Source: an uncultured Actinomycetes bacterium
GTDB taxonomy: Bacteria > Actinomycetota > Thermoleophilia > Gaiellales > JALYLC01
Reading direction: 5' to 3'
Assembly: GCA_963743275.1 (NCBI GenBank)
Contig: CAVUPB010000011.1
Coordinates: 72,153 to 136,152 of the forward strand
Length of the DNA stretch: 64,000 bases
The notes under the pieces are model-generated. The model was not told the origin of the DNA. It was given only the letters and a program-made list of their open reading frames with translations, and did no database searches. The first letter of the stretch is position 1, and each line of letters opens with the position of its first letter. Made by a program: the position numbers and the translations under genes. Shown one piece after another: positions 14,563 through 61,904 of this stretch.

Positions 14563-14589
14563 TCAATAGCGGTGCTGAGCTGTCGATTA
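14563..14589 (+). promoter_or_regulatory. Sigma-28 (FliA)-type promoter for the fliJ operon
   Basis: TCAA-N15-GTCGATTA, 31 nt upstream of the fliJ ATG. Confidence 0.5.
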
Positions 14590-14620
14590 CGGAACCGGCC
14601 ACGCGTCCCGGCCCTCGATC

Positions 14621-15070
14621 ATGCCCAGTCGCCGCTTCACCTTCAGCCTCGAGTCGATCCGCAGCGTGCGCCAGCACACGGAGCTCGTCGCCATGCGCCA
14701 GCTCGCCTACGAGCTCGATCGCGCCGCGCAGCTGCACGCAGAGCTCGGCAGCGCCGAGGCCCGCCTGAACGACGCGTGCGCCGCGCCGGTCGAGGTCTCG
14801 ACCGCGCGCGATCTGTCTGCGCGCCACGTCTATCGCGAGCAGCGCAAGCGGGAGCTCGGCGACGCGCGGCAACGTGCCGACGTGCAGGCCGGGCACGTCG
14901 CGACGGGACGGGCGCAGCTCGTGTCCGCCACCCGCGATCGCGAGACGCTCGACAGGCTCGAGGGCCGCCAGCGCGCGGCGCACGACATCCTCGAGCGGCG
15001 CGCCGAGCGCACCCACGCCGACGAGGTGTCGCTGGCGATGCGCCGGCTGCACCTGGGGGGCTCCGCGTGA
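14621..15070 (+). CDS. fliJ: Flagellar export chaperone FliJ
   Basis: 149-aa coiled-coil protein starting [28 protein letters not shown], with size and position typical of FliJ. Confidence 0.7.
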
Positions 15071-15639
15071 GCCTCGAATCCGTGCTGGCGCGCATCGAGG
15101 CGCTCGTTCCCTCGACCCCGCCCGTCGCGGCGACGGCGCCCGTCCCGGCGGCGACGACCCCCGCTGCGTTCGCGACCGCGCTCTCCCAGGCGTCTGCCGC
15201 TCAGGCTCCGGCCGCGGCTGCGACGGGCGACCAGGCTGCCGCGCCCTACCTTGCTGCGATCCGGAAGGCCGGTGCCGCTCACGGCGTCGACCCGCTCCTG
15301 CTCCAGGCCGTGATCGCCCAGGAATCGGGCTTCAACCCGAAGGCGACGAGCCCGGCCGGCGCGCAGGGCCTGATGCAGCTGATGCCCGGGACCGCGGCCG
15401 GTCTCGGCGTGACCGATCCGTACGACCCGCTGCAGTCGATCGACGCCGGCGCTCGCTATCTGAGCAACGACCTGGCGCGCTTCGGCGGCGATCCCAAGCT
15501 CGCCCTCGCGGCCTACAACGCCGGCGCAGGCGCGGTCGAGCGCTACGGCGGCGTGCCGCCGTACGCCGAGACCCAGAACTACGTCCAGAAGGTGCTGGCC
15601 CACTACGAGCGCTTGCAGACCCAGGGGAGCGCACCATGA
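15067..15639 (+). CDS. Lytic transglycosylase (SLT domain), flagellum-associated
   Basis: GTG overlaps the fliJ stop. SLT catalytic region [33 protein letters not shown]...AYNAGAGAV. Confidence 0.8.
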
Positions 15640-17060
15640 GCGACCTCATGACCGCGGCGCCTCCGGCGACCGCGCCGGGGCCGGCGATCGCCCCGGAACC
15701 CGCGTCTCCGCCGGGCGGGGCGCCACCCGGAGCCAGCTTCGCGGAGGCGCTCGTCACGGCCGGCCACGGGCCACCGGAGACAGGCACCGAACCAGGCACC
15801 CGGACCGCTGTTGCGGAAGGTGCGAAGGGCGAGAGCGACTCTCTCGGCCCTGAGGACTCGGACACGCTCACGGCGCCTGCCGTGACGGCGGACGCGTCCG
15901 CGGCGCTCGCGGCCGCGGCGCTGGTCGCCGTACCCGCCACACCCGTTGCGGGCACCGATCCCGCGGCAGCGGCCTCGGCTGAGGGAGCCGGCCAGGCCGC
16001 CCCGGCAGGTGCAGCCACGCCCGGCCAGGCTGCCGGGCCGCCGGTCGCGGCCGTCGCTGCGCCCGCCGGCGCGGACGTGCAGCCGGTCGAGCAGCCGCCG
16101 GTCCCGGCAGGCGCCCGCGCGGACGCACCGGTCGCAGACTCCGCGAGCGGCGTGGCGCCCGGCGCCGTGCGACCGCCGGTGACCCCTGAGGCCCCGGCCG
16201 CCCCGGCCGCCCCGGCCGCGGGGCCTGCCGCCGCCGCGCCTGCGGTCGCGCCGGATCCGCCCGTCTCCCCGGCGCTGCGGGACGCCGTCGCTCCCGTCAC
16301 GCCGGCGGAACCGGCAGGTGCGAACGGGCCGGTCGCGCCGAACGGGCCGGTCGCGCCGGACACGGCGAAGACGTCCGCCGTGCCGCACGCGCCGAACACG
16401 CCGGCCGCAGCGGTCGCCGGGCCCCCCGCCGCCGCGCCTGCGGCGCAGACGGATCAGCCCGCCCCGGCGGCGGCGGAGACGACGCCCGCGTCCGCGCGGC
16501 CGGTGCCCGCGGACCCGGCCCCGGCCCCGGCGGCTCCCGATCAGGCTGCGACCCCGCCGCTCGCACCGGCGCTGGCGCCGCGGGCCGAGACGTCCGCGGC
16601 CGTGCGTCCCGTCGTTCCGCCTCCGGCCCCGCCGCCGGCTGCGCCCGTGCCCCTGCGCGAGCTCGCGCACGCGGCCGGCGCGGCGATCCGGTTCACGGCC
16701 GGGCAGGGCGGCGGCAGCGCGCGCATCGTCCTCCATCCGCAGGATCTCGGCTCCGTCGAGATCCGCCTGCGCGCAACGGCGGACGGCATCTCGGCCACGC
16801 TGCGCGCCGACAGCCCGCAGGCCGCCCAGACCCTCAGCCTCGCGAGCGACGAGCTGCGCCGGTCGCTCGAGGAGCAGGGGCTGCCCGTGCTGAGCCTGGA
16901 TGTCTCGGACGGCAGTCGCAAGCAGGCCGCGCACGACGACCCGGAGTCGGCCGCCCGCGGGCGCCTCGACGCCGAGGAGGGCGCCGAGGAGGACGGGAGC
17001 GCAGACGGCGGCCCGCTCCGGCGGCCCGAGGCCGGAAGCCAGATCGACGTACTCGCGTAA
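15636..17060 (+). CDS. fliK: Flagellar hook-length control protein FliK (Pro/Ala-rich)
   Basis: ATGA overlap with the upstream stop. C-terminal Flg_hook-type domain [40 protein letters not shown] preceded by about 300 aa of P/A-rich spacer. Confidence 0.8.
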
Positions 17061-17078
17061 TCGAAGGGAAGCGACCGT

Positions 17079-17871: not shown

Positions 17872-17937
17872 ATCCCGTCAACCGCCAAGGCCGGACCCCG
17901 AGGGGAAGCCGCGGCAACGAAAGCCAGGAGCCCGGAA

Positions 17938-18798
17938 ATGATGCGAGGAATGTTCGCCGCGATCAGCGGCCTGCAGGTCCACCAGACGATGCTCGACGTC
18001 GTCGCCAACGACATCGCCAACACCAACACCGTCGGCTACAAGAGCGAGCAGACGACCTTCAAGGACGCGCTCTCGCAGACCACGCGCGGCGCCAGCGGCG
18101 GCACGACCACCCTCGGTGGCACGAACGCCATCCAGATCGGCCTCGGCGTCCAGCTCGGCTCGATCTCGAACCACATGGACCCCGGGGCGGTCCAGCAGAC
18201 CGGCGGCCCGCTCGACATGGCGATCCAGGGCGACGGGTTCTTCCGGGTCGGGGACGCCGCGGCGATCGCGGGCACCGGTGCCGTCTCGTACACGCGCGCC
18301 GGCAACTTCACCCTCGACGCCGGCGGCAGCCTCGTCACCCAGGACGGCGCGTTCGTGATCGGCTACCTGCCGACGACGCCCGCCACCCCGGCCGGCTACG
18401 CGAACCCGGCCAACCAGACCAAGCTCACCGTGCCGACGGGCGGCAAGTCGGTCTCGATCCAGTCCGACGGCACCGTGACCTACGTCGACTCGGCCGGCGT
18501 CCTGCAGACGCTCGGCACGATCAGCATGGCCAAGTTCCCGAACGCCGCGGGCGTCGAGCGGATCTCGGGGAACCTGTTCCAGGCCTCGAACAACTCCGGC
18601 GCGGCCGTGGCCGCGGTGCCGGGCGACGCGACCACGGGCATGGGCACGCTCGCGGTCGGCGCGGTCGAGATGTCGAACGTCGACCTCGCCCAGGAGTTCA
18701 CGCGCATGATCACGGCCCAGCGTGGCTACGAGGCCAACAGCCGCATCATCTCGACGGCCGACCAGATGCTCCAGAACCTGGTCAACATCGGTCGCTGA
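17938..18798 (+). CDS. flgE: Flagellar hook protein FlgE (short form, 286 aa)
   Basis: N-terminal MFAAISGLQVHQTMLDVVANDIANTNTVGYK and C-terminal LAQEFTRMITAQRGYEANSRIISTADQMLQNLVNI. Confidence 0.9.
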   Translation: MMRGMFAAISGLQVHQTMLDVVANDIANTNTVGYKSEQTTFKDALSQTTRGASGGTTTLGGTNAIQIGLGVQLGSISNHMDPGAVQQTGGPLDMAIQGDGFFRVGDAAAIAGTGAVSYTRAGNFTLDAGGSLVTQDGAFVIGYLPTTPATPAGYANPANQTKLTVPTGGKSVSIQSDGTVTYVDSAGVLQTLGTISMAKFPNAAGVERISGNLFQASNNSGAAVAAVPGDATTGMGTLAVGAVEMSNVDLAQEFTRMITAQRGYEANSRIISTADQMLQNLVNIGR

Positions 18799-18808
18799 TA
18801 GCCGATAA
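18782..18808 (+). promoter_or_regulatory. Sigma-28-type promoter overlapping the flgE stop
   Basis: TCAA-N15-GCCGATAA, with the -10 element starting 3 nt after the flgE TGA. Confidence 0.45.
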
Positions 18809-18810
18809 CC

Positions 18811-18844
18811 CGATGGCGGCGGGCGTTTCCGCCCGCCGCCATCG
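18811..18844 (+). terminator. Perfect 15-bp GC-rich stem-loop between flgE and flbD: an attenuator, an I-shaped terminator or an mRNA stabiliser
   Basis: CGATGGCGGCGGGCG-TTTC-CGCCCGCCGCCATCG. No U-tract follows. Confidence 0.5.
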
Positions 18845-19140: not shown

Positions 19141-19223
19141 AAAGTGATCTTTGAGCGCGACCGGTCGATAACCGGATGGTGGCCACGGACGGCCACTCGC
19201 AATCTCCAACGGACTGGAGCGAA

Positions 19224-21735: not shown

Positions 21736-21762
21736 TCAACTCACCCGCGCGGCCGCCGATAA
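21736..21762 (+). promoter_or_regulatory. Sigma-28-type promoter spaced for a leaderless methyltransferase mRNA
   Basis: TCAA-N15-GCCGATAA, with only 7 nt between the -10 element and GTG 21770. Confidence 0.55.
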
Positions 21763-23917: not shown

Positions 23918-23944
23918 TCAAGTTCGCGAGGTACGTGCCGACGA
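23918..23944 (+). promoter_or_regulatory. Sigma-28-type promoter for the flgF-flgG...fliC unit
   Basis: TCAA-N15-GCCGACGA, 45 nt upstream of the flgF ATG. Confidence 0.45.
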
Positions 23945-23979
23945 CTCGGCAACGGAAAGGGCAGTCCCCGCTCTCTCCG

Positions 23980-24006
23980 TTATCGACCAATGGATCGCGG
24001 CCTCTA
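23980..24006 (-). promoter_or_regulatory. Weaker sigma-28-like promoter for the FliK-like / FlhB-CTD-like pair
   Basis: On the minus strand, TAGA-N15-GTCGATAA. It overlaps the flgF start codon region. Confidence 0.3.
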
Positions 24007-24712: not shown

Positions 24713-24873
24713 GATGGATCCGGGTGCGAGCTAAATCCATGGACGCCCTGGTCGATGACCGTGCAGTCGGAGAGGGAACCCGCGGGCCGGACTGCATCGC
24801 GCAGAAGCCTCGGGGGATCGCAGACGTCGATCTCCCCACCCCTCTCGAAGGTACGAGGAAAGGCTAGGGCTTC

Positions 24874-29475: not shown

Positions 29476-29521
29476 GCCCGCCTTCATTTTCAGCTCATCC
29501 TCGGAAAGGACTGACGGTCCC

Positions 29522-30440: not shown

Positions 30441-30467
30441 TCAACTGCGACCGCCGCCGGCCGATTA
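30441..30467 (+). promoter_or_regulatory. Sigma-28-type promoter spaced for a leaderless CHAP-hydrolase mRNA
   Basis: TCAA-N15-GCCGATTA, with 8 nt to ATG 30476. Confidence 0.55.
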
Positions 30468-34944: not shown

Positions 34945-35093
34945 GGGCTACCGGCCCTCGCCCGGGAGGGCGGGGCCGACGGGGCGGCGCACGCCCGGCG
35001 GGAGCGTGCGCCGCGGATCGGGGAGATTCCGAGCAGGCACTGCTCCCGGTTGATCGGCCGGGGCGCGCGCTGCTTTAGACATCGCGCGGTTCG

Positions 35094-37914: not shown

Positions 37915-38528
37915 CGGGCCGTCATCCTCCTGAGCGACTCGAGCAGCGCCGCGCGGAAGCTCGGCCGGTCGCTCTCGACGATCGGGCTGCCGAGGACGGG
38001 CAGGTCGCGCGGCTCGATCCGCAGGTCGCGCGCCTCGTCGGCGCTGTAGACGCGGATGGGCGTCACGCCCTGCTCGGCCGAGCCCACGAGCACGATCTCC
38101 TCGCCCACCCGCACGAGGTGGATCGAGCGCGACGGCGCGAGCGGTGTCGACGCGACGACCGACATCCAGTCGTCGCCCTGGATTGTCCCGCTGCTCTTCT
38201 GCTGCTTGCCCGCGCTCCGCTTCAGCAGCCGGTAGAGGACGTAGATCAGCGCCAGCACGAGCGCGAGGCCGAACAGCATGTGGACCGCCGCGCCGCTCGT
38301 GGCCGAGCCCTGCAGGGCGCTCTGCGCGCTGCCGCTGCCGCTGCCGGTCACCTTCGCGGACAGGGGCGTACGGTCGCGGTGGAAGCCGGACTCGGCGGCG
38401 CTCGCCGGCACGAAGGCGAGCAACGACAGCAGGAGCGCAGCCACGGTGCCGGCGCGCCTGCGGAGGGGATCCGAGAGCACGGGGGGCGTACTCGGCTGGC
38501 AGCCGGACCGCTTGAGCGCGGTAGGCAT
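37911..38528 (-). CDS. fliO: FliO/FliZ-type flagellar protein
   Basis: Single TM MLFGLALVLALIYVLYRLLKR plus IHLVRVGEEIVLVGSAEQGVTPI. Its stop overlaps the fliP start. The start is 38528 or 38561. Confidence 0.7.
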   Translation of the reverse strand: MPTALKRSGCQPSTPPVLSDPLRRRAGTVAALLLSLLAFVPASAAESGFHRDRTPLSAKVTGSGSGSAQSALQGSATSGAAVHMLFGLALVLALIYVLYRLLKRSAGKQQKSSGTIQGDDWMSVVASTPLAPSRSIHLVRVGEEIVLVGSAEQGVTPIRVYSADEARDLRIEPRDLPVLGSPIVESDRPSFRAALLESLRRMTAR

Positions 38529-38662
38529 CGAGCTACCAAACGGTGAGTCAGTTCCCAGCAAAACGGTATGGGATATCGCTGCGAAGCGGGTATCTGCCGC
38601 GCCGGACGCCGAATCGATAAGTGGGTTGTCCCCCTGGCACCCTCCGCGTGAAGGCGGTTCGT

Positions 38663-39466
38663 ATGAAGGACAGCACCGGTTTCCAGCGGCTCACGCCCGA
38701 GCAGGCCGAGGCCCTCTGGCGCGCCTGGAGTGTGCGGAAGGATTCTTCCGCTCGCGACCGGCTGGTGCTTGCGTACGCGCCGATGATTCGCTACATCGCA
38801 TCGCGCAAGGTGCGGGAACTCCCGTCTCAGACGGACCTCGACGATTTCCTGTCTTGCGGGATGATCGCGTTGATCGAGGCGGTCGATCGCTTCGATCCCG
38901 AGAAGGGTGCCTCCTTCGAGCAGTTCGCCTGGACGCGTGTCGCCGGCGCGATGGTCGACGAGCTCCGCCGCCAGGATTGGGCCTCGCGCTCGGCGCGCCG
39001 GATGAGCCAGAAGCTCGAGCATGCGACCGACGAGTGGTATGCCCGCGAGGGTGCGATGCCGAGCCCCGAAGAGCTCGCGGCCGTGATGGAGCTGACCGTC
39101 CCGGAGGTCTGGGCGATCAAGGAGAACATCGAGCGCGCCGACGTGATCTCGCTGAACGCTCCGACGCGCTCCGGCGACTATTCGATCTCGCTCGAGGTCG
39201 GCGACACGATCGAGGCGCGCGACGGTCGTCTCGATCCGGAGCGGGCGGCGCTCGCCGCCGAGCGGCTGGCCCTCATCCGGAATGCGATCGCCGGCCTGCC
39301 GGAGCGCGAACAGCGCGTGCTGTCGCTCGTGCACACGCACGAGATGCAGGGCGCAGAGATCGGCCGGCTCCTCGGCGTCAGCGAGTCGCGCGTCTCGCAG
39401 ATCCTGGCCGAGGTGCGGAACAACCTGCGCCGGCAGATCTCGAACTACGACGCCGCCGCCGCGTAG
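38663..39466 (+). CDS. fliA: FliA/WhiG-family sigma-28 factor
   Basis: Region 2 LVLAYAPMIRYIASR...CGMIALIEAVDRFDPEKGASFEQFAWTRVAGAMVDELR and region 4 REQRVLSLVHTHEMQGAEIGRLLGVSESRVSQI. ATG 38663 has GAAGG upstream. Confidence 0.9.
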   Translation: MKDSTGFQRLTPEQAEALWRAWSVRKDSSARDRLVLAYAPMIRYIASRKVRELPSQTDLDDFLSCGMIALIEAVDRFDPEKGASFEQFAWTRVAGAMVDELRRQDWASRSARRMSQKLEHATDEWYAREGAMPSPEELAAVMELTVPEVWAIKENIERADVISLNAPTRSGDYSISLEVGDTIEARDGRLDPERAALAAERLALIRNAIAGLPEREQRVLSLVHTHEMQGAEIGRLLGVSESRVSQILAEVRNNLRRQISNYDAAAA

Positions 39467-40797: not shown

Positions 40798-40824
40798 TAT
40801 TCGGCAGGCAGCGCGCGGACTTTA
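40798..40824 (-). promoter_or_regulatory. Canonical sigma-28 promoter of fliC copy 2
   Basis: Minus strand TAAA-N15-GCCGAATA, followed by a 97-nt leader to the ATG. Confidence 0.75.
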
Positions 40825-41015: not shown

Positions 41016-41174
41016 ATGAGTCCGGCCGTGCGCCGCGAGGCTCCCGGAAGCCTCGCACTCGTATGCGGGTCGAGTGAGCGCCACCGCTCGCCCGAGCCGC
41101 CTGTTGGCAGGTGGGACGATCACGCGAAGCCGGGAGTCCGCACTGGCTCGCCCGCGCGCCAGGCCCGGCCGTGA
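41016..41174 (+). CDS. Possible 52-aa upstream ORF coupled to the first response regulator
   Basis: ATG preceded by GGAGGA at 5-nt spacing. Its stop overlaps GTG 41171 (GTGA). The composition is indistinguishable from noncoding GC-rich translation. Confidence 0.25.
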   Translation: MSPAVRREAPGSLALVCGSSERHRSPEPPVGRWDDHAKPGVRTGSPARQARP

Positions 41175-41794
41175 GCCAGGCCATCACGTGTCTCGTCGCC
41201 GACGACCACCCCGCAGTCCTCGCCGCCGTGTGCCGTGCGCTCGAGCAGGAGGGGGACATCGAGGTCGTCAGCCGCGTCGCCGACGGCGAGCAGGCGCTCG
41301 CGCACATCAAGGCGCGGCGGCCGACGGTCGCGCTGCTCGATGTCCGCATGCCCGGCCTCTCCGGGATCGAGGTCGCCCGCCGTCTCGAGGAGAATCACCG
41401 CACCGGAGTGATCCTCTACACCGCGTACGGCGATCCGGCGCTCGTCGTCGAGGCCCTCGACGCGGGCGTCCGCGGCTTCGTCCTCAAACAGGCCCCCGTC
41501 GAGGACCTGCTGCGCGCGATCAGGCTGGTCGCGCTGGGATCGACCTACATCGACGCCGCCGTCGCGGGCGCGCTGGCGATGTCGGAGACGGCCGGGCTCC
41601 CGGTGCTCACGAAGCGCGAGCGCGATGTCCTGCGCCTGCTCGCCGAGGGCCTGCGCAACGAGGAGATCGGCGACCGGCTGTTCATCTCTCCGTTCACGGT
41701 GCGGAACCACGTCGAGACGGTCATGGCGAAGCTCGAGGCGAACAGCCGCGCCCACGCCGTGGCGACCGCGCTGCGCCAGGCGCTCATCACGTGA
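41171..41794 (+). CDS. NarL/LuxR-family response regulator (orphan)
   Basis: Receiver domain ITCLVADDHPAVL...VALLDVRMPGLSGIEV and HTH LTKRERDVLRLLAEGLRNEEIGDRLFISPFTVRNHV. The start was chosen by homology with its neighbour. The ORF track starts at 41111. Confidence 0.9.
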   Translation: MSQAITCLVADDHPAVLAAVCRALEQEGDIEVVSRVADGEQALAHIKARRPTVALLDVRMPGLSGIEVARRLEENHRTGVILYTAYGDPALVVEALDAGVRGFVLKQAPVEDLLRAIRLVALGSTYIDAAVAGALAMSETAGLPVLTKRERDVLRLLAEGLRNEEIGDRLFISPFTVRNHVETVMAKLEANSRAHAVATALRQALIT

Positions 41795-41896
41795 CATCGG
41801 CACGCATCGGCCCGGGCGGGACTATGCTGCCCGAGGGATGGAAGCAATCGCATCCCGGCCGCCGGCGGTGACCCCCGTCAGGCCGCTTCCCCGACG

Positions 41897-42523
41897 GTGA
41901 CGACCCGTCAGATCACCTGCCTCGTCGCCGACGATCACCCCGTGATCGTGGAGGCGCTCTGTCTCCTCCTGGACGGGTGCGGCATCCCGCTGGCGGGCCG
42001 CGCCCGGCAGGGGCACGAGGCCCTGGCGAAGATCGAGACGGAGCGCCCCGCGCTGGCGATCCTCGATCTGCACATGCCGGGCCTGAGCGGCATCGAGGTC
42101 GCGCGCAACGCCGCTCGCTCCGTCCCCGAGACGGCGATCATCCTCTACACCGCCGAGGCCGAGATCGCGCTCGTCCGCGAGGCGCTCGCCGCCGGAGTGC
42201 GGGGCTTCGTGCTCAAGGGGGCGCCGCTCCCGGACATCACGCGAGCGATCGAGATGGTCGTCGGCGGCAGCGTCTACATCGACCCGGTGCTCGTCGCCGG
42301 TCTCCACCGCGACGAGCCGTCGCCGAAGGCCAAGCTGACCGCGCGCGAGCACGAGGTCCTCTTCCTGATGGCGAACGGCCTCAGCTACGACGACATGAGC
42401 AGGCAGCTGACCATCTCGCCCGAGACCGCTCGCACGCATGTGCGCAAGGCGGTCGAGAAGCTCGGCGCCCGCACGCGCCCGCACGCGCTCGCGATCGCGC
42501 TCCGCGAGTCGCTCATCTCCTGA
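41897..42523 (+). CDS. NarL/LuxR-family response regulator (orphan), a tandem paralog
   Basis: MTTRQITCLVADDHPVIVEAL...LAILDLHMPGLSGIEV and HTH LTAREHEVLFLMANGLSYDDMSRQLTISPETARTHV. Confidence 0.9.
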   Translation: MTTRQITCLVADDHPVIVEALCLLLDGCGIPLAGRARQGHEALAKIETERPALAILDLHMPGLSGIEVARNAARSVPETAIILYTAEAEIALVREALAAGVRGFVLKGAPLPDITRAIEMVVGGSVYIDPVLVAGLHRDEPSPKAKLTAREHEVLFLMANGLSYDDMSRQLTISPETARTHVRKAVEKLGARTRPHALAIALRESLIS

Positions 42524-42547: not shown

Positions 42548-42573
42548 GAGAGCGCATTCGGAAATGCGCTCTC
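42548..42573 (+). terminator. Perfect 10-bp hairpin after the second response regulator
   Basis: GAGAGCGCAT-TCGGAA-ATGCGCTCTC. Its 3' end overlaps the next promoter's TCAA. Confidence 0.45.
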
Positions 42574-42598
42574 AAGACTGCGCCGAGACGGGCGACAA
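42572..42598 (+). promoter_or_regulatory. Sigma-28-like promoter spaced for a leaderless mRNA
   Basis: TCAA-N15-GGCGACAA, with 7 nt to GTG 42606. Confidence 0.4.
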
Positions 42599-43831: not shown

Positions 43832-43923
43832 GCGGCCCTAAAGAGCCCCCGGCGGAGGCCGACTACGTGGGCGTCCCCGGGCCGCGTGGCGGCCGCGTCC
43901 GCATTCGAGAGGACATTCCTCCG

Positions 43924-46900
43924 TTGACTGTGCCGATCGTCTCTGCCCCCTTCGCCGGCCTCGACGAGATCGCCGAGCCGTATGCGCTCCTGCTCGCGCC
44001 CGGCGCCGAGGTGAGCGCCGAGGCGATCGCGGAGCTGCGGGCGACGCTCGACGCGAATCCCGCCGCGGGCCTCGTCGGGGCCCGGCTCGCCGGGCCCGAC
44101 GGCCTGCTCCGGCAGGCCGGCGGCATCGTCGCGAGCGACGGCTCGATCTGGAGCTACGGCCACGGCCGGCAGGGCGACGACCCGCGCTACCTGCACGCGC
44201 GGGAGGTCGACTGGGTCTCGACGGACTGCGCGCTCGTGCGCGTCGCCGCGCTGCGCGCCGCCGGGGGCTTCGATCCCGCGCTCGCCGGCGAGGAGCGCGA
44301 CGCCGATCTCGCGTTCGCCCTGCGCCGGGCCGGCTATGCGGTCGTCTACCAGCCGTTCGCCGAGGCGGTCGTCCACGACCAGGCCGCCGAGACCGCCGAC
44401 GCCGCGGCCACCTGCGAGCTCAGCGTCATCATGCCGACCCACGATCGGGCGGAGCTGCTGCGCGACGCGCTCGAGAGCCTCGTGGGCCAGAGCGTCGCGC
44501 GCGACCGCTTCGAGGTCGTCGTCGTCGACGACGGCTCGACCGACGGCACCGAGCAGGTCTGCGCCGAGCTCTCCGAGCGGCTCGACCTCCGCTACGTCCG
44601 GATCGCGAGCTCGGGCATCGCCGCGGCCAAGAATGCCGGCATTCGCGCGGCGCGCGGCGCCATCCTGCTGTTCCTGGACGACGACGACGTGGCCGATCCG
44701 GGCCTGCTCGCGGAGCACCTCCGCGTGCACGCCGAGCGGCCCGAGGAGCACGTCGCGGTGCTCGGCTACACGACGTGGGGCGACTGGCTCGACGTGACGC
44801 CGCTCATGCACTTCGTGACCGACGTCGGCCACTACCTGTTCGCCTACAGCGACCTCGAAGACGGCCAGTCGCTGGACCACACCTACTTCTGGGGCGGCCG
44901 GAGCTCGTGCAAGCGCTCGTTCCTCCTGCGGCGCGGGCTCTTCAACCCGGCCTTCACGTTCGGCTCGGAGGACATCGAGCTCGGCTACCGGCTCTCCCGC
45001 TACGGACTCGAGGTCGTCTACGCCGCCGGCGCGATCAGCCGGATGAACCGGTCCGTCACGCTCGACGAGTTCTGCCGGCGCGTCGAGCGCCAGGGCCGTT
45101 CGCAGCTCGTCTTCTCGCGCCTGCACGCCGACCCCGGCGTCCAGACGTGGTGCGGCGTGGAGGCCGCCGCGGAGCGCTGGGCTGCGGTCGCGGCGGATCT
45201 CGACGCCCGTCTCGCTCGCGCCCGCGAGATCGAGGGTGCGCGCAGCGAGGAGTTCCACGCGCTGCTGTGGGGCATCTTCGACGCGCTGAAGCTGAAGGGG
45301 ATCGCCGAGGCTGCGAGCGAGGACGAGCAGGTCGCGCGGCCCGCGGCGCTGCGCCACGAGGCGCCGGGTGCCGCGCTGCGCGCCAAGTGGGCCGAGGAGC
45401 TGCGCGCGCAGACGGCGCCCGAGCACGAGCTGATGCGGGCGGCCGCCAACCGCGCGCCCGGCAGCCGGATCTTCGTCGCCGATCTGCTGCTCCCCGCCTA
45501 CACGCGCGCCTCCGGTGCGCGACGGATGTTCGAGTTGCTGCGCCTGCTCGCCGCCGCGGGTCACGCCGTCACGTTCGTCGCCGCCGACCCCTCCGACGGG
45601 CCGCGCTTCGTCGACGAGCTGCGCCGGCTGGGGATCGAGACCTACGCCGGCGACCCCGAGCGGGCGCTGCTGCTCGGGCGCTCCGTCGAGGCGCCGCACC
45701 TCGATCTCGGCGAGCTCCTGGCCGGGAGCGACTTCGATCTCGCGCTGCTCAGCCTGTGGTACGTGGCCGAGCGCTACCTCGAGCCCGTGCGGCGCTACGC
45801 GCCACGGGCGCGGATCGTGGTCGACACGGTCGACGTGCACTACGTCCGCGAGCAGCGCCATGCCGAGCTCGTGGGCGACCCGCTGCTCGCGCGCGGGGCA
45901 GCCGAGACGCGCCTGCGCGAGCTCGGCGTCTACGCGCAGGCCGACGCGCTCGTCGCCGTCACCGACAACGATGCCGACGGGATCCGCGCCGCGCTTCCCG
46001 AGGCCGAGATCCACATCGTCGGGAACATCCACGACGTCGCCGAGGCGTCGCCCGGGCCGGCGGGGCGCCAGGGCCTGCTCTTCGTCGGCAACTTCCTGCA
46101 TCGCCCGAACCCCGACGCGGTGATCTGGCTGCAGCGCGAGGTCATGCCGCTCGTCTGGGACGAGGAGCCGGATGCGACGCTGACGATCGCCGGGTTCCGG
46201 CCGACGGCCGAGGTACGGGAGCTCGCCGGCCCGCGCGTCGACGTCGTCGGCCACGTGCCCGACATGCAGCCGCTGCTCGACGCGCACCGCATCTCGGTCG
46301 CACCGCTGCGCTTCGGCGCAGGGATCAAGGGCAAGGTGTGCGAGGCGCTCGCGGCGGGACTCCCCGTGGTCACCACCGGCGTCGGGAGCGAGGGGATGGG
46401 CCTCGCCGAGGGCCACGACGTGCTGCTCGAGGCCGACGACGCGGAGGCGTTCGCCGCCGCCATCCTGCGGCTGCTCCGCGACGACGCGCTGTGGGCGCGG
46501 CTTGCCGCCGGCGGCCGTGCCTATGTCGAGCAGCAGCTCAGCTCGCAGGCGGCCGCGAAGCGGCTCGAGCGGCTGGTCGAGAGCGAGCGGGCCCGCAAGG
46601 CCGACGCGGAGCTGACATCGATCGTCGTGCTCGCGCTCGACAACGCCGAGCTGACCGGCGAGTGCCTCGACTCGATCGCCGCGCACACCGCCGAGCCCTA
46701 CGAGATCGTGCTCGTCGACAACGGCTCGGGCCCGGAGGCCGCGGATCTCTTCGCGCGCTGGGCGCGCGAGCGCGACGACCTGCGCGTGGTGCGCAACGCG
46801 GTCAACCTCGGCTTCGCCGGCGGCAACAACCAGGGACTCGCCCTCGCCCGCGGTGGCGCCGTCGTGCTGCTCAACAACGACACCGTCGTCACCGACGGCT

Positions 46901-49836: not shown

Positions 49837-52800
49837 GCCTGCGCGTCGTCTCCGTCCTGCCCGGCGCGGAAGCGCAGGCGACCGGGCGGGAGAGCATCGC
49901 GGAGCCGCTCGTCTCCATCGCGATCCTGACGCTGAACGGCAGCGAGCACACGCGCGCGTGCCTCGAGAGCATCGAGCGCTCGACGGCGGAGCCGTACGAG
50001 CTGCTGCTCGTCGACAACGGCTCCAGCGACGGCACGGTCGAGCTCCTGCGCGACTACGCGGCGACGCGCTCGCACGTCCGGCTGGTGCTGAACGGCGCGA
50101 ACCGCGGCTTCGCGGGCGGCAACAACCAGGCGCTCGCGCTCGCGCGCGGCGAGTACGTCGTCCTGCTCAACAACGACACGATCGTCACGGACGGCTGGCT
50201 CGGGCGGCTCATCGGCGCGCTCGAGAGGACGCCGGGCGCGGGCCTCGCCGGTCCCGTGTCCAACTACGTCGCCGGGCCACAGCTCGTCGAGGCCGGCTAC
50301 GCGAGCGTCGGCGAGGTCGCGCCGTTCGCACGCGCCTGGGCCCGCGCCCACGCCGGCGCGGTCGAGCCCGTTGCCCGTCTGATCGGCTTCTGCCTGCTGC
50401 TCCGGCGTGAGGTGGTCGAGGCGGTCGGCGCGCTCGACGAGTCCTTCGGCGCCGGCAACTTCGAGGACGACGACCTCTGCCTGCGCGCTCGCGCGGCGGG
50501 CTTCGGCTGCGTGATCGCGCGCGATGCGTTCGTCCATCACACGGGCAGCCAGACGTTCATCGGCGAGCGGATCGACTACGGCGCCAGCCTCGTGCGCAAC
50601 CGCATGGTCTTCGAGCGGAAGTGGGGGTGCTCGCTCGACGCCCTCTGGGATCGCGGCCTGGCCGCAGTCGAGCCGGAGCGGCTCGAGCGCCTGCGCCACC
50701 TGCCGCTGCCCGCGCACTCGCTGCCGGAGTCGCAGGCGGGCGCCGCCGGCGATCAGCTGCGCGGCGAGCTCCGCGTCGAGGATCTTCTCGTGCGCGCCCG
50801 CGCCGCGGTGCTCGGGCACGACCTCCGGGCCGTGCGCGAGCGCTTCGCCGAGCCCGCCGGCTGGGACGAGGAGCAGCGTGCCTACCAGGCGGTGCGCCAC
50901 CTGACCGAGCTCGTGCTCGCGACCGGGGCGGCGATCCGCGACGAGGGCTGGATCGACCTCTACGTCGCGGCTGCCGAGGGCCTGCTCGGGGTGCTCGAAC
51001 GGGAGCCGTCCGAGCCGGTGCTGCTCAACTTCGCCGGGATCCTGCTCTACGAGCTGACCGAGCTCGAGTCCGCCGCCGCGCTCTTCGAGGCGGCGCTCCG
51101 GCTCGACCCGTCGCTCGACGAGACGGCCGGGAACCTCGCTGCGGCCCGTGACCTGCTCGCGCGCGAGGACCGGCCGCGTCTCGCGCACTACGGGCTCGCC
51201 GCCCTCGCCGACCTCGGCCGTCGCCTGGCGGCTGCGGCGAGGCCGGTGGAGGGGTTGACGGTGTCGCTGTGCATGATCGTGAAGGACGAGGAGGAGTTGT
51301 TGCCGGCCTGTCTGGAGGCGGCGCGGGGTGCGGTCGACGAGATCGTGGTGGTCGATACGGGTTCGTCGGATCGCACGGTGGAGATCGCGGAGTCGTTTGG
51401 TGCGAAGGTCGTGTCGTTTCCGTGGAACGGGTCGTTTGCGGATGCGCGGAATGTCTCGATCGAGCATGCGACGGGCGATTGGATCATGTATCTGGACGCC
51501 GACGAGCAGCTTGCTGCGGGCTCGGCCGCAGAGTTGCGCTCGCTGCTCGGCAAGACCTGGCGCGAGGCCTTCTACCTCGTCGAGACGAACCACACGGGCG
51601 GGGACGAGGCGGGGACGGCGGTCGCCCACCCGGCGATGCGCATCTTCCGCAACCGCCCCGAGTACCGCTTCGAGGGCCGCATCCACGAGCAGAAGTCGCG
51701 GCTGATGCCGACGTTCCTGCCGGAGCGGTTCGAGACCACGACCGTCCGGGTCGAGCACTTCGGCTACCTCAAGAGCCGGGTCGTCGGCCGCGACAAGTCC
51801 CGGCGCAACCTCGAGCTGCTCGCGCGCGAGGTGGAGGAGTCGCCCAGCCCGTTCGCGTCGTTCAACCTGGGCTCCGAGTATCAGATGCTGAGCGACTGGC
51901 AGCGCGCCGCCGGCCACTTCGACGACGCCTGGCGCGAGCTGCGCCGCGAGGGCGAGTGGCACACGGCGGGCTTCGCGCCGATGCTCGCCGCGCGCACCGC
52001 CCGCGCCCACCGCGAGTGCGGGCGGATCGAGAAGGCGCGCGACGTGCTCGCCGAGGCGGTCGCGCTGATGCCCGACTACACCGACCTCCACTTCGAGCTC
52101 GCGCTCTGCGCGCAGGCGACGGGCGAGCGGGCCGAGGCCGAGCGGCTGCTCCGGCACTGCCTCGAGATCGGAGACGCACCGCCGCGCTACGCGGCGACGG
52201 TCGGCACGGGCTCGCATCTCGCGCTCGGCGTCCTCGCCGAGCTGGCCGAGGCGCGCGGCGACGATGCCGAGGCGATCGCCCTCTACCGGCGCGGCCTCGA
52301 GCTGCGGCCCGCCTTCACGGCGACCGTGCTGCCGCTCGCGAAGCTCCTGCTCGAGAACGGCTCGACCCCCGCCGAGCTGTCCCGCGAGCTCCCGCTCGAA
52401 CGTCCGTCGGCGGCGCTGCTGACGGCGACCGCCTACCTCGAGAGCGGCCACGCGCAGGCGGCCGAAGAGCTCTTCCGGCAGGTGCTCGCCCGCCGTCCGG
52501 GAACGCCTGCGGCACGCATGGGCGTGCTGCAGGCGCTGCTCGGCCAGCGCCGCTACGCCGAGGCCGCCGCGGAGGCCGCGAGCGAGACGGCCGAGGCGGA
52601 GACCGCGTCGCTCGCCGCCTCCACGGGCATGTTCGCGTGCGCGGCGCTCGGCGCCCCGGCGCTGCTCGCCACGGCGATCGAGCGCGCGGAGCGGCTCGCT
52701 GTCGCAGACGGCGAGCTCGAGTTCTACCGGGGGTGGGAGGCGGCTCTCGGCGGTGCACCGCTCGGCTCCCTGCCCGCGTCGGCGCTCGAGCCCGCGCTCG

Positions 52801-53156
52801 GCGCGCTCGAGGCGCTGCTCCGCGTGCGCGAGTTCGACGCGTTCGGGCGGCTGGTCTCCGTGTACGAGTGCATCGATGCTCCGCTCGAGGAGCGCCGGGA
52901 ACGACTCGCCCAGCTCTACCTGCGCAGCGGCTACGCGGACTCGGCCGAGGACGAGTGGCGCCGCGGTGCGCTCGACGCGGATTCGCTCGTCGGGCTCGCC
53001 CAGGTCGCGCTCGTGCGCGAGCAGCCCGGCGAGGCGGCCGCGCTCGCAGGCAAGGCGCTCGACCTCGACCCGGCCTCGAAGACGGCCCGCAAGCTCGTGT
53101 CGGTTTTGACCCGATCGGGGGATACGGCCTCAATCTTGGGCTCGACAGGTCGATGA
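49833..53156 (+). CDS. Multidomain glycosyltransferase (1107 aa): GT2, helical linker, GT2 and a TPR-like tail. It is a paralog of the C-terminal half of the previous gene.
   Basis: GTG overlaps the upstream stop (GTGA). VSIAILTLNG...LLVDNGSSDGT...LLNNDTIV...GNFEDDD, then SLCMIVKDEEELLP...VVVDTGSSD...MYLDADE, and a TPR-like C-terminus. Confidence 0.85.
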   Translation: MSLRVVSVLPGAEAQATGRESIAEPLVSIAILTLNGSEHTRACLESIERSTAEPYELLLVDNGSSDGTVELLRDYAATRSHVRLVLNGANRGFAGGNNQALALARGEYVVLLNNDTIVTDGWLGRLIGALERTPGAGLAGPVSNYVAGPQLVEAGYASVGEVAPFARAWARAHAGAVEPVARLIGFCLLLRREVVEAVGALDESFGAGNFEDDDLCLRARAAGFGCVIARDAFVHHTGSQTFIGERIDYGASLVRNRMVFERKWGCSLDALWDRGLAAVEPERLERLRHLPLPAHSLPESQAGAAGDQLRGELRVEDLLVRARAAVLGHDLRAVRERFAEPAGWDEEQRAYQAVRHLTELVLATGAAIRDEGWIDLYVAAAEGLLGVLEREPSEPVLLNFAGILLYELTELESAAALFEAALRLDPSLDETAGNLAAARDLLAREDRPRLAHYGLAALADLGRRLAAAARPVEGLTVSLCMIVKDEEELLPACLEAARGAVDEIVVVDTGSSDRTVEIAESFGAKVVSFPWNGSFADARNVSIEHATGDWIMYLDADEQLAAGSAAELRSLLGKTWREAFYLVETNHTGGDEAGTAVAHPAMRIFRNRPEYRFEGRIHEQKSRLMPTFLPERFETTTVRVEHFGYLKSRVVGRDKSRRNLELLAREVEESPSPFASFNLGSEYQMLSDWQRAAGHFDDAWRELRREGEWHTAGFAPMLAARTARAHRECGRIEKARDVLAEAVALMPDYTDLHFELALCAQATGERAEAERLLRHCLEIGDAPPRYAATVGTGSHLALGVLAELAEARGDDAEAIALYRRGLELRPAFTATVLPLAKLLLENGSTPAELSRELPLERPSAALLTATAYLESGHAQAAEELFRQVLARRPGTPAARMGVLQALLGQRRYAEAAAEAASETAEAETASLAASTGMFACAALGAPALLATAIERAERLAVADGELEFYRGWEAALGGAPLGSLPASALEPALGALEALLRVREFDAFGRLVSVYECIDAPLEERRERLAQLYLRSGYADSAEDEWRRGALDADSLVGLAQVALVREQPGEAAALAGKALDLDPASKTARKLVSVLTRSGDTASILGSTGR
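51219..51572 (+). repeat. 354-bp block 100% identical to 47920-48273 (copy 2)
   Basis: As for copy 1. It encodes RRLAAAARPVEGLTVSLCMIVKDEEELLP...LLGKTWREAF in both genes. Confidence 0.9.
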
Positions 53157-55876: not shown

Positions 55877-55903
55877 TCAACTCACGGCCGGGGCGGTCGA
55901 TGA
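55877..55903 (+). promoter_or_regulatory. Sigma-28-like promoter for flgB-flgC-fliE-fliF-fliG-fliH-fliI
   Basis: TCAA-N15-GTCGATGA with a 71-nt leader and SD AAGGAG. Confidence 0.45.
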
Positions 55904-57052: not shown

Positions 57053-57055
57053 CGC

Positions 57056-60245: not shown

Positions 60246-61582
60246 CGGCCGCGGCGCTCGAGCCCTACTTCGACGCCGTGCGCACCGCCGACCTGATGCG
60301 GCACCGCGGCCGCGTCAAGAGCCTGATCGGGCTCGTGATCGAGGCGACCGGACTGCGCGCGGAGGTCGGCGAGCTCTGCACGATCTCCGCCGGGCGCAGC
60401 GCCCAGCCGGTCGCCGCGGAGGTCGTGGGCTTCCGCGACGGCGGCACGCTGCTCATGCCGCTCGGCGACATGCACGGGATCGGGCCCGGCAATCCGGTCA
60501 CGGCGACCGGCCGGCCGTTCCGCGCCCCGGTCGGGGAGCAGCTGCTCGGCCGCGTCCTCGACGGGCTCGGGCGGCCGCTCGACGAGCAGCCGGCCCCGGC
60601 GACCGGCGAGCTGCGCCCGACCGCGGCGCCGCCGCCGCGACCGCTCAGCCGCCGGCGCATCGTGCGGCGGCTCTCGCTCGGCGTGCGCGCGCTCGACACG
60701 CTCGTCCCGTGCGGCACGGGGCAGCGGCTCGGGATCTTCGCCGGCTCGGGCGTGGGCAAGTCGTCGCTGCTCGGCATGATCGCCCGGTCGACGACCGCCG
60801 ACGTCAACGTGATCTGCCTCGTCGGCGAGCGCGGCCGTGAGGTGCGCGAGTTCATCGAGCGCGATCTCGGCGACGCGCTCGCCCATTCGGTCGTCGTCGT
60901 CGCGACCTCCGACGAGCCGGCGCTCGCGCGCATCAAGGCGGCGCTCGTGGCGACCACGATCGCCGAGTGGTTCCGCGACCGCGGCGACGACGTGCTGCTG
61001 ATGATGGACTCCGTCACCCGGCTCGCGACGGCGCAGCGGGAGCTCGGCCTCGCGATCGGCGAGCCGCCGGCGGCGCGCGGCTTCACGCCGAGCGTGTTCG
61101 CGCTGCTGCCGCGCCTGCTCGAGCGCGCCGGCCAGAGCGACCGTGGGTCGATCACCGGTCTCTACACCGTGCTCGTCGAGGGCGACGACATGAACGATCC
61201 GGTCGCCGACTCCGTGCGCTCGATCCTCGACGGCCACTGCGTGCTCACGCGCGAGCTCGCGCATCGCAACCACTACCCGGCGATCGACGTCCTCCAGTCG
61301 GTGTCGCGGCTCGCCGGCGAGGTGACGGGGCCCGAGGTGCAGGCGGCGGCCGGGACGCTGCGCGAGCTGCTCGCGCTGCACCGCGAGAAGGCCGACCTGA
61401 TCGCGATCGGCGCCTACGTCGGAGGCACCGACGCGCACATCGACCGCGCGATCGCGGCGATGCCGGCGATCGAGGGCTTCCTGCGCCAGCGCGTGGACGA
61501 GCCGTCCCCGGCCGAGCAGTCCGATGCGGCGCTGCTCGACCTCCTCGCGCCCGCGGTGCCGGGCGACGTCGTTCAGGCGTAG
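60242..61582 (+). CDS. fliI: Flagellum-specific ATPase FliI
   Basis: Walker A GIFAGSGVGKSSLLGMI, Walker B DVLLMMDSVTRLA and HYPAIDVLQSVSR. Confidence 0.95.
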   Translation: MTAAALEPYFDAVRTADLMRHRGRVKSLIGLVIEATGLRAEVGELCTISAGRSAQPVAAEVVGFRDGGTLLMPLGDMHGIGPGNPVTATGRPFRAPVGEQLLGRVLDGLGRPLDEQPAPATGELRPTAAPPPRPLSRRRIVRRLSLGVRALDTLVPCGTGQRLGIFAGSGVGKSSLLGMIARSTTADVNVICLVGERGREVREFIERDLGDALAHSVVVVATSDEPALARIKAALVATTIAEWFRDRGDDVLLMMDSVTRLATAQRELGLAIGEPPAARGFTPSVFALLPRLLERAGQSDRGSITGLYTVLVEGDDMNDPVADSVRSILDGHCVLTRELAHRNHYPAIDVLQSVSRLAGEVTGPEVQAAAGTLRELLALHREKADLIAIGAYVGGTDAHIDRAIAAMPAIEGFLRQRVDEPSPAEQSDAALLDLLAPAVPGDVVQA

Positions 61583-61794
61583 ACGTCGATGCGCGGGCGG
61601 CGCGGCGGCTGTGCGGCGGCGCTCGAGGTGACGATCGTGCGGTAGGCGCTCCGCACCTCCGCCAGCGCGCGCAGGTCGCCCGTGCCGGTGTCGGGATGGA
61701 GGTGGCGCAGGCGCGCGCGGTACGCCGAGCGAGCCGCGGCGGGCGTGCAGGCGGCCGGAAGGCCGAGAATCCGGTGGGCGTCCCGCAATTCCAT
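61573..61794 (-). CDS. Small J-domain (DnaJ-like) protein, 73 aa
   Basis: AHRILGLPAACTPAAARSAYRARLRHLHPDTG contains the HPD tripeptide in J-domain context. It is convergent with fliI and overlaps it by 10 nt. Confidence 0.55.
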   Translation of the reverse strand: MELRDAHRILGLPAACTPAAARSAYRARLRHLHPDTGTGDLRALAEVRSAYRTIVTSSAAAQPPRRPRIDVYA

Positions 61795-61877
61795 CTCGGA
61801 TCGAAGCTACCACGACTCCCTGGCCGCGGTCGATCCCCGAGCGGCCCGGCCGTCGAGCCGCCCGTGACGGCTCCGCC

Positions 61878-61904
61878 TCACATCCGCGGGCGTCCGGCCG
61901 ATTA
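61878..61904 (+). promoter_or_regulatory. Sigma-28-like promoter for fliM-fliY
   Basis: TCAC-N15-GCCGATTA, about 40-55 nt upstream of the fliM start. Confidence 0.4.

Follow-up and report, generated by a model that had tools for sequence, protein, structure and literature searches.

Which promoters drive the flagellar genes of an uncultured actinobacterium, and do its early and late genes answer to the same sigma factor? We examined these questions in a 64-kb stretch of contig CAVUPB010000011.1 (hereafter the window, meaning this whole stretch), where a single flagellar gene cluster of the Gram-positive type occupies the DNA from 14.6 kb to the window end and continues past it. A short bipartite element, two boxes separated by 15 nt, recurs in the intergenic DNA of this cluster. 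With a probability of roughly 85%, we read it as a promoter of the sigma-28 (FliA/SigD/WhiG) class that heads essentially every flagellar unit and is read by the FliA/WhiG-type sigma factor of the cluster, such that early and late genes would share one sigma factor and the units with closely spaced promoters would be expressed as leaderless mRNAs. The organism is known from assembled sequence only, and all evidence on its promoters is at the sequence level.

A recurrent element with a fixed spacer

The original prediction for this DNA had listed ten elements found by eye, and all ten 27-nt strings are present letter for letter, position and strand included. The count itself was too low. A position weight matrix covering both boxes, which had been proposed as a check, was built and run on the window and on related loci; the motif is enriched, and 15 sites in the window (18–26 bits) stand above the noise, the five missed earlier lying upstream of flgG, flhA, fliO, the giant glycosyltransferases and the fliD operon. 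Training used 13 of the 15 sites; those of fliO and flhA lay outside the training set and are independent matches. All 15 sites are intergenic or overlap a gene end, and each is co-oriented with a flagellar-cluster gene 7–115 nt downstream, while the 14.5 kb of non-flagellar DNA in the window contain none. The noise of the matrix does not exceed 17.7 bits and comes mostly from coding DNA with a 16-nt spacer.

A strict pattern, TMAA-N15-GBCGAHDA, or T(C/A)AA-N15-G(C/T/G)CGA(A/C/T)(A/G/T)A when spelled out, matches the window 11 times compared to 0.06 matches expected from dinucleotide shuffles. In the 9.4 kb made up of intergenic DNA and 30 nt at each gene end, the same 11 matches compare with an expectation of 0.017 (2000 shuffles). 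With the spacer varied from 8 to 23 nt, the window yields 11 matches at 15 nt and 0–1 at every other spacing, and 1.3 Mb of related loci yield 101 matches at N15 versus 0–16 elsewhere. The constant spacing seen by eye holds in 15 of 15 sites. Eight of the ten original sites fit the strict pattern, but those of the FliK-like gene (TAGA) and fliM (TCAC) have a deviant −35 box. A looser −35, T[CA][AG][AC], meant to admit both, was unspecific (16 matches at N15 and 16 at N16), and these two sites are therefore judged on other evidence.

The extended consensus is C-T(C/A)AA-N15-G(C/T)CGAT(A/T/G)A-C. All 13 training sites share the CGA core and the final A, as do the fliO and flhA sites, and a purine stands 8 nt past the −10 box in 13/13 training sites, which is likely the transcription start. 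Over the 15 sites the −35 box reads TCAA in nine versus TAAA in four. One further candidate, TCAA-N16-GCCGAGCA located 1 nt before fliW, was rejected because it is made of the C-terminal codons of flgL and the ribosome-binding site of fliW. An Rfam scan of the whole window returned nothing at gathering thresholds. A scan for the sigma-70 consensus at 14.4–31.7 kb and 38.3–41.3 kb gave no match and is uninformative at the G+C content of 72% found across the window.

The fifteen sites and their units

The sites are listed below in the order of the window. L001 denotes the closest relative; the closest genomes are Gaiellales metagenome-assembled genomes, and FlgF is 85% identical in L001.

14563..14589, plus strand: fliJ promoter, TCAA-N15-GTCGATTA, 31 nt before the fliJ ATG (14621); orthologous site in L001; probable unit fliJ, SLT, fliK, flgD, Flagellar_put, flgE
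18782..18808, plus strand: flbD promoter, TCAA-N15-GCCGATAA, overlapping the flgE stop codon, 50 nt before flbD; orthologous site in L001; probable unit flbD, motA, motB, fliL, fliN
21736..21762, plus strand: methyltransferase promoter, TCAA-N15-GCCGATAA, −10 ending 7 nt before GTG 21770; leaderless candidate
23918..23944, plus strand: flgF promoter, TCAA-N15-GCCGACGA, 45 nt before the flgF ATG (23990)
23980..24006, minus strand: promoter of the FliK-like and FlhB-C-terminal-like genes, TAGA-N15-GTCGATAA, facing the flgF promoter, with overlapping predicted 5' ends
24732..24758, plus strand: flgG promoter (missed earlier), TAAA-N15-GTCGATGA, 115-nt leader; probable unit flgG, rod-binding protein, flgN, flgK, flgL, fliW, csrA, fliC1
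30441..30467, plus strand: CHAP hydrolase promoter, TCAA-N15-GCCGATTA, −10 ending 8 nt before ATG 30476; leaderless candidate
35051..35077, minus strand: flhA promoter (missed earlier), TAAA-N15-GCCGATCA, between flhB and flhA, 106 nt before GTG 34944; 18.1 bits
38489..38515, minus strand: fliO promoter (missed earlier), TCAA-N15-GCCGAGTA, 8 nt before the candidate GTG 38480; 19.2 bits; probable unit fliO, fliP, fliQ, fliR, flhB
40798..40824, minus strand: fliC2 flagellin promoter, TAAA-N15-GCCGAATA, 97-nt leader
42572..42598, plus strand: promoter of the sulfatase/AP-like hydrolase, TCAA-N15-GGCGACAA, −10 ending 7 nt before GTG 42606; leaderless candidate, with an alternative upstream ATG at 42438
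43839..43865, plus strand: promoter of the giant glycosyltransferase pair (missed earlier), TAAA-N15-GCCGACTA, 64 nt before GTG 43930
53130..53156, plus strand: promoter of the fliD operon (117-aa gene of unknown function, fliD, fliS, fliT; missed earlier), TCAA-N15-GTCGATGA, overlapping the glycosyltransferase stop codon, 51 nt before ATG 53208
55877..55903, plus strand: flgB promoter, TCAA-N15-GTCGATGA, 71-nt leader; probable unit flgB, flgC, fliE, fliF, fliG, fliH, fliI
61878..61904, plus strand: promoter of fliM and fliN/Y, TCAC-N15-GCCGATTA, 54 nt before GTG 61959; 20.7 bits

The two sites with unusual −35 boxes differ in the evidence available for them. At the FliK-like gene the oddity itself is kept, with TAGA or TGGA combined with GTCGATWA in 10 relatives, and this conservation makes the weak-looking site credible. 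The fliM site has a deviant −35, but its −10 box is strong and its spacing and flanking bases are correct; an orthologous site was sought in L110, where a different gene precedes fliM.

The flgF and FliK-like promoters stand face to face (23918–24006), with predicted starts at about 23952 rightwards and about 23972 leftwards, such that the predicted 5' ends overlap by about 20 nt and the polymerase footprints would overlap as well. The arrangement is kept in relatives, and its conservation suggests mutual interference between the two promoters.

A GC-rich hairpin at 18815–18842 (plus strand), GGCGGCGGGCG-tttc-CGCCCGCCGCC, begins near the predicted 5' end of the flbD transcript, just past the flgE stop codon. 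It might act on the flgE message, as a terminator or a stabiliser, or else stabilise the flbD transcript. Within the flbD unit, motA is preceded by a −10 box only:

19164..19171, plus strand: −10-only box GTCGATAA, 52 nt before motA

The −35 position reads TGAT and the score is 12.4 bits, and we keep this box as a −10-only feature and did not accept it as a full site. L001 has a full TAAA-N15-GGCGATTA at the same position, so that the −35 box of motA has been lost in the window relative to L001.

Conservation in Thermoleophilia

Two samples of related DNA were available. In one, the window proteins were mapped onto 80 related genome loci, which were then scanned with the weight matrix; the other consists of 31 metagenome loci centred on fliA. 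After the Gaiellales, the next closest genomes belong to Gaiellaceae, Solirubrobacterales, Conexibacter and Baekduia, all of the class Thermoleophilia. Sites occur at orthologous positions in Gaiellales, Solirubrobacterales and Conexibacter, with the following counts among the 80 loci.

flgF site: 47/80 loci, 44 with TCAA
flgG site: 41 loci
fliS site: 18 loci
flgB site: 17 loci
FliK-like site: 10 loci
CHAP site: 9 loci
Flagellin gene (fliC) sites: 9 loci

The site of the fliD operon also precedes the orthologue of the 117-aa gene in three relatives. In L002, L003, L005, L006 and L083, fliC is preceded at about 102 nt by a TAAA site. Among the metagenome loci, TCAA/GCCGATTA is found upstream of fliO in about ten, and in L082 the fliO arrangement is identical to that of the window, including the 8-nt gap to GTG. 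The promoter between flhB and flhA is present in L089 and L091 as well. Alignments of the upstream regions of flgF and the FliK-like gene (A1) and of flgG (A2) show invariant boxes with freely diverging 15-nt spacers and flanks; in A1 the strings CTCAA and G.CGA are invariant at the flgF site.

The sigma factor

The cluster encodes one candidate for the protein that reads these promoters.

38663..39466, plus strand: FliA/WhiG-family sigma factor of 267 aa with sigma-70 regions 2, 3 and 4 (Pfam), inferred reader of the 15 promoters

It scores 201.1 against TIGR02479, the model of the FliA/WhiG subfamily (cut-off 189.6), and its best solved structures are Streptomyces venezuelae WhiG (6PFV), FliA (9WSM), Aquifex sigma-28 (1RP3) and the Escherichia coli FliA holoenzyme (6PMI). 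The gene lies beside fliO and fliC2 in the window and in the 31 related loci. The proposal that the elements match the sigma-D/WhiG/FliA consensus is upheld for both boxes and for the exact 15-nt spacer, and is joined by the presence of a sigma factor of this family inside the cluster. Given this co-location and the consensus match, the sigma factor encoded at 38663–39466 most likely reads the 15 sites.

Early and late genes

The motif precedes early units (flgB-fliI, fliOPQR-flhB, flhA-flhF and fliM-fliN) as it does late ones (fliC2, fliD-fliS-fliT and flgG-fliC1). By role, the units with a site cover the rod, MS-ring, C-ring and ATPase (flgB-fliI), the export gate (fliOPQR-flhB, flhA-flhF), the switch (fliM-fliN), the hook (fliJ-flgE), the stator (flbD-motAB), the distal rod and junction (flgF; flgG-flgL-fliW-csrA-fliC1), the flagellin (fliC2) and the cap (fliD-fliS-fliT). 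Five accessory enzyme units also carry one, namely the methyltransferase, the CHAP hydrolase, the sulfatase-like hydrolase, the giant glycosyltransferases, and the FliK-like gene with FlhX. The claim that early genes (flgB, fliF, fliM) are of the FliA type as well thus agrees with the motif preceding the early operons and with its conservation at flgF (47/80 loci), at flgB (17) and at fliO and flhA in the metagenome loci.

As to the flat hierarchy drawn from that claim, the enteric scheme does not fit, as no FlhDC is found in the window and early operons carry the motif, but "flat" is an overstatement: fliA and two response-regulator genes lack a full site, and there is therefore at least one tier above FliA. 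The FliW-CsrA pair encoded in the cluster also counts against fully flat control. No FlhC or FlhD domain occurs in any annotated protein of the window. No FlgM was found by Pfam or NCBIfam (small proteins at permissive E-values, other proteins at E ≤ 0.01) in this window, past whose end the cluster runs. Upstream of fliA, no full sigma-28 site, defined as a matrix score of at least 15, is present in the window or in any of the 31 loci. The features relevant to the upper tier are the following.

38613..38620, plus strand: −10-like box ATCGATAA, 42 nt before the fliA ATG; T(C/A)AA is lacking 15 nt upstream
41171..42523, plus strand: two NarL/LuxR-type response-regulator genes with no sigma-28 motif

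Within the fliA box, TCGATAA is unchanged between the window, L081 and L082. In relatives at 58% identity, fliA is preceded at about 100 nt by an invariant GCCGATAC, with no matching −35 box. The fliA box may be a weak or activator-dependent auto-regulated promoter. The tier above FliA would be whatever turns on fliA, and the two LuxR-type regulators nearby are conceivable candidates for it. A perfect inverted repeat, GGTAG-N8-CTACC (38520–38537, plus strand), comes directly before the fliO −35 box, precedes the fliA −10-like box by about 75 nt and is conserved in L081 and L082; it is possibly a regulator site common to the divergent fliO and fliA promoters. As a recurrent operator it is ruled out by its single occurrence in the window.

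The −35 choice differs among genes over the related loci: flgF has TCAA in 44 versus TAAA in two, fliS has TCAA in 17 versus TAAA in one, and flagellin genes have TAAA in eight versus TCAA in two. One could speculate that the choice between TCAA and TAAA is fixed per gene across the class, and that assembly is ordered by the graded affinity of one sigma factor for its promoters and not by tiers of regulators. In such a scheme, the consensus box would belong to flagellin promoters and a weaker variant to structural genes, in actinobacteria that are poor in FlgM; the GGA hairpin of the flgG leader (a putative CsrA target, see below), leaderless starts and the facing flgF and FliK-like promoters could add fine-tuning. 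We regard this scheme as quite improbable.

Leaderless spacing

Between the end of the −10 box and the start codon there are 7 nt for the methyltransferase, 8 nt for the CHAP hydrolase and 7 nt for the AP-like enzyme, just as had been reported for these three accessory enzymes, and fliO is a fourth candidate at 8 nt. A ribosome-binding site does not fit into gaps of this size. Leaderless mRNAs are common in Actinomycetota. The frames of the methyltransferase and the CHAP hydrolase permit no earlier start codon. The N-terminus of the methyltransferase matches that of L001 residue for residue from residue 1, which fixes its start codon at GTG 21770, and the N-terminus of the CHAP hydrolase aligns with relatives from residue 1, its ATG lying 8–11 nt past the −10 box in L001, L004, L010, L017 and L064. 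When 183 unique sites are pooled, start codons that open a reading frame cluster at offsets 7–11, with about 10 per offset compared to a background of about 2.4 (about 4-fold).

In 29 loci of the Solirubrobacterales/Conexibacter type (L024–L076), the ATG of flgF, marked by the universally conserved N-terminus MDRG/MERG, lies 8–12 nt past the −10 box. There flgF, and often flgG too, begins at this distance, and core structural genes appear to be leaderless. The flgF gene of the window differs from these in having a 45-nt leader without an obvious ribosome-binding site.

The methyltransferase, the CHAP hydrolase, the sulfatase-like hydrolase and possibly fliO are most likely made as leaderless mRNAs, and it is reasonable to regard the case as strongest for the CHAP hydrolase and the methyltransferase and weaker for the AP-like enzyme and fliO. 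Roughly a quarter of the promoters of this kind in these clusters would be placed for leaderless transcripts.

Alternative explanations

Several observations weigh against the reading of the element as a promoter of one cluster-encoded sigma factor on essentially every unit. The scores of 13 of the 15 sites are inflated, as these sites trained the matrix, and only fliO and flhA provide independent scores. The sites of fliM (TCAC), the AP-like enzyme (GGCGACAA) and the giant glycosyltransferases are supported by the window alone. L001 lacks the methyltransferase promoter, and the gene there overlaps or is coupled to the fliN stop codon. No full site precedes fliC1, fliA or either response regulator. 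The start codons of the putative leaderless genes lie anywhere from 7 to 11 nt past the −10 box, so that some of these genes may carry leaders of a few nucleotides. The similar promoter recognition reported for WhiG1- and WhiG2-type sigma factors (PMC13595943) means that a paralogue elsewhere in the genome could use the same sites. Finally, flhA (32894–34944, minus strand) is split over three frames by two frameshifts, near 34296–34300 and 34764, while in relatives, including L001 at about 90% protein identity, it is one intact frame of about 685–718 aa. The frameshifts are either an assembly indel error or the mark of a pseudogene; if they are real, the export gate would be broken and the system may be decaying.

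The alternatives built on such points differ in how much of the promoter map they would leave standing. The most sweeping one, that the paired boxes are no promoter at all but a dispersed repeat or a site bound by a DNA-binding regulator, has nothing specific in its favour beyond the principle that any conserved intergenic motif could be an operator. It is difficult to reconcile with two short boxes around a rigid 15-nt spacer of free sequence, with the strict orientation to the downstream gene, with a base-for-base match to the sigma-28 consensus next to a gene for the cognate sigma factor, or with the lack of any extended repeat around the boxes in alignments A1 and A2, and we consider it extremely improbable. 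A milder version accepts a functional core subset of the 15 sites and treats the poorly conserved ones (AP-like, fliM, methyltransferase and giant glycosyltransferase, along with the −10-only boxes at motA and fliA) as look-alikes or decayed promoters whose genes are expressed by read-through. The AP-like −10 box is the weakest of the set (9.6 bits), and neither this site nor fliM with its deviant −35 has orthologue support; the absence of the methyltransferase promoter in L001, with translational coupling of that gene to fliN, and the loss of the motA −35 relative to L001 point in the same direction. On the other hand, even one strict intergenic match has a chance expectation of 0.017, and the doubtful sites are all correctly oriented, keep the spacer at exactly 15 nt and have the flanking C bases. 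Such a reduction of the map is possible, if somewhat unlikely.

Two further alternatives take the promoters as genuine and concern what reads them and how their transcripts are translated. A second FliA/WhiG paralogue elsewhere in the genome, for example one of the WhiG2 type under the c-di-GMP-dependent anti-sigma factor RsiG, could read the sites mainly or in addition, and motility would then be switched by c-di-GMP and not by the cluster sigma factor alone. Both WhiG1 and WhiG2 of G. obscurus can replace S. venezuelae WhiG (PMC13595943), which is also the best solved-structure match of the window's sigma factor, and the Thermoleophilia Conexibacter, Patulibacter and Thermoleophilum have single-motif RsiG homologues together with WhiG homologues (PMC8325347). 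Yet a sigma gene inside the cluster next to fliO and fliC2, as in the window and the 31 loci, is the arrangement described as usual for the RsiG-independent WhiG1 clade, and no RsiG-like gene was recognised within the window. We consider it unlikely that a paralogue reads the sites, be it mainly or in addition. As to translation, the closely spaced promoters might give no leaderless mRNAs if the true start is a downstream in-frame codon behind a short leader, or if the proteins are translated from read-through transcripts. In favour of this, the starts of the AP-like enzyme and fliO are not fixed by homology, as their N-termini are unconserved or orthologues are lacking, the start codon is GTG and not ATG in three of the four cases, and the 7–11 nt range of the gap extends across relatives. 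We nevertheless find it doubtful, since the methyltransferase and the CHAP hydrolase have no earlier start codon and align from residue 1, FlgF begins with MDRG/MERG 8–12 nt past the −10 box in 29 loci, and starts are enriched about 4-fold at offsets 7–11.

Leaders of flgG and fliC

The 115-nt flgG leader (24759–24873, plus strand) contains a hairpin conserved across Thermoleophilia, composed of GGCYGGAC, a variable stem-loop and GAAGCC (alignment A4), with covariation at two inner pairs (UA to CG in 10 sequences, and GC to AU or CG in three). One GGA lies in the internal loop and a second over the ribosome-binding site (AGGGAAGGA). The hairpin has no match in Rfam. It could be a CsrA site placed before an operon that itself encodes FliW and CsrA. 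In the Solirubrobacterales relatives the leader is wholly missing, and flgG looks leaderless there.

The flagellin gene fliC1 begins 46 nt after csrA (29476–29521, plus strand) without a sigma-28 site, in the window and in L001–L006, and is therefore probably co-transcribed with fliW-csrA. Its leader has GGAAAGGA over the ribosome-binding site. The second flagellin gene, fliC2, has its own TAAA promoter and several GGA motifs in its 97-nt leader.

Gene layout and neighbouring features

Genes were identified by a codon-usage caller combined with Pfam and NCBIfam; calling from third-position GC alone was dropped as too crude. Bases 1–14518 are occupied by genes for the transport of sugars and peptides, with sugar hydrolases, a LacI regulator and an oligopeptide ABC transporter. 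The flagellar cluster opens with a plus-strand run of fliJ, SLT, fliK, flgD, Flagellar_put, flgE, flbD, motA, motB, fliL, fliN, the methyltransferase, flgF and flgG, continuing with the rod-binding protein gene, flgN, flgK, flgL, fliW, csrA and fliC1 and then the CHAP hydrolase; the FlhB-C-terminal-like and FliK-like genes lie on the minus strand in the interval between the methyltransferase and flgF. A minus-strand block of flhF, flhA, flhB, fliR, fliQ, fliP and fliO follows. After it come the FliA-type sigma gene, fliC2 on the minus strand, the two LuxR-type response regulators, the sulfatase/AP-like hydrolase and two very large glycosyltransferases, and the last part comprises the 117-aa gene with fliD, fliS and fliT, then flgB, flgC, fliE, fliF, fliG, fliH and fliI, and finally fliM and fliN. 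Neither flgH nor flgI is present in the window's part of the cluster.

The fliJ unit adjoins the unrelated ABC transporter and lies 47 kb from fliH-fliI, its usual predecessors (14621 and 61582 in the window), so that the order of the cluster looks rearranged. L001 has the same local order from fliJ to flhA, and in L003 and L005 flgB/flgC, the fliD operon and a glycosyltransferase are located directly upstream of flgF. The 377-nt gap between fliI and fliM contains, on the opposite strand, a DnaJ-like open frame of 71 aa (61573–61788, minus strand) with a J-domain and an HPD motif (Pfam DnaJ E = 1.7e-5, just below the gathering score). The two glycosyltransferase-TPR genes (1968 aa and 1107 aa) contain duplicated segments at 46658–48540 and 49954–51839 (plus strand), offset by about 3.3 kb and 91% identical over 644 nt and 75% over 630 nt. 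This indicates that part of a probable flagellin-glycosylation enzyme was duplicated in tandem.

Comparison with known systems and significance

In enteric bacteria, FliA drives only the class 3 (late) genes, under the FlhDC master regulator and the FlgM checkpoint. The sites of the window resemble the sigma-28/SigD/FliA promoters of Bacillus subtilis and enterics in both boxes, in the 15-nt spacer and in having flagellin, hook-associated and motor genes as targets, but unlike in the enteric scheme, basal-body and export-gate operons carry the motif, and neither FlhDC nor FlgM was detected in the window. The three-tier pattern, with FlhDC and with early operons free of sigma-28 sites, is thus not the one found here. 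The classical consensus is given as TAAA-N15-GCCGATAA (Helmann 1991, as cited in PMC8325347).

TCAA had been taken as a departure from the known −35 box. This does not stand, as the published consensus for actinobacterial WhiG1/2 (−35 XT(C/A)AX, −10 GCCGA; Denis et al. 2026, PMC13595943) already allows either C or A at the second position. That survey places several sites within flagellar clusters (Actinoplanes, Cellulomonas and Geodermatophilus), most often before flagellin and flbD, and its discussion assigns WhiG homologues mainly to late flagellar stages. The window shares the C or A at the second −35 base, the GCCGA core with variable first two bases, and flagellin and flbD among the targets. 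The survey gives a spacer of 16 bases compared with the 15 we count from T(C/A)AA to the G of GCCGA, which probably reflects a different framing of the −35 box. Its main text makes no mention of Thermoleophilia, Gaiellales, Conexibacter, Solirubrobacter or leaderless transcripts, and a survey of flagellar evolution that covers Thermoleophilia (PMC10746217) never mentions promoters. With respect to FlgM, the former reports its absence from almost all actinobacterial flagellar clusters, while the latter states that classes without FlgFG lack it, implying that the early-branching classes that contain FlgFG keep it.

The closest parallel is Actinoplanes missouriensis, where, according to PMC13083903 and PMC13595943 (citing Jang et al. 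2016 and Hashiguchi et al. 2020), all 11 flagellar transcription units are under FliA1/FliA2 promoters and the response regulator TcrA sits above them, switching on the fliA genes and part of the flagellar units. Both systems combine one cluster of many short units (11 there, about 15 here) with FliA-family promoters that include early structural genes and with a sigma gene in or near the cluster, and TcrA there may correspond to the two LuxR-type candidates here. As in Actinoplanes, a FliA-type promoter precedes every flagellar unit in the window, early ones included, the exceptions being fliA and the two response-regulator genes. A. missouriensis differs in that it belongs to the class Actinomycetia, sporulates, has three to four FliA paralogues and shows developmental control, whereas the window, from an uncultured relative of the Gaiellales in the class Thermoleophilia, shows one sigma gene and keeps flgF/flgG, flhF, the FlhB-C-terminal-like protein and FliW-CsrA; moreover, the Actinoplanes promoters have been mapped experimentally, while ours are predicted from DNA sequence. 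The WhiG promoters of Rubrobacter radiotolerans (Schumacher et al. 2021, PMC8325347), 12 of which were validated by 5'-end capture, come from an early-branching lineage sister to Thermoleophilia, and the same consensus was applied to them. Their targets, unlike those in the window, are type IV pilus genes and c-di-GMP enzymes, Rubrobacteria have no flagella, and the sigma factor is controlled by RsiG and c-di-GMP.

The motif, its C/A variant and the lack of an enteric-style hierarchy are thus already known, and nothing is overturned by the present results. New are the lineage, the complete map of 15 units and the frequency of leaderless spacing. The operon map and the weight matrix can be used for annotating genomes of Gaiellales, Solirubrobacterales and Conexibacter. 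The documented actinobacterial layout, in which one FliA-type sigma factor stands before all flagellar operons, would extend to Thermoleophilia, an early-branching and largely uncultured class of soil bacteria, and this extension supports the notion that the layout is old in the phylum and not a speciality of Actinoplanes.

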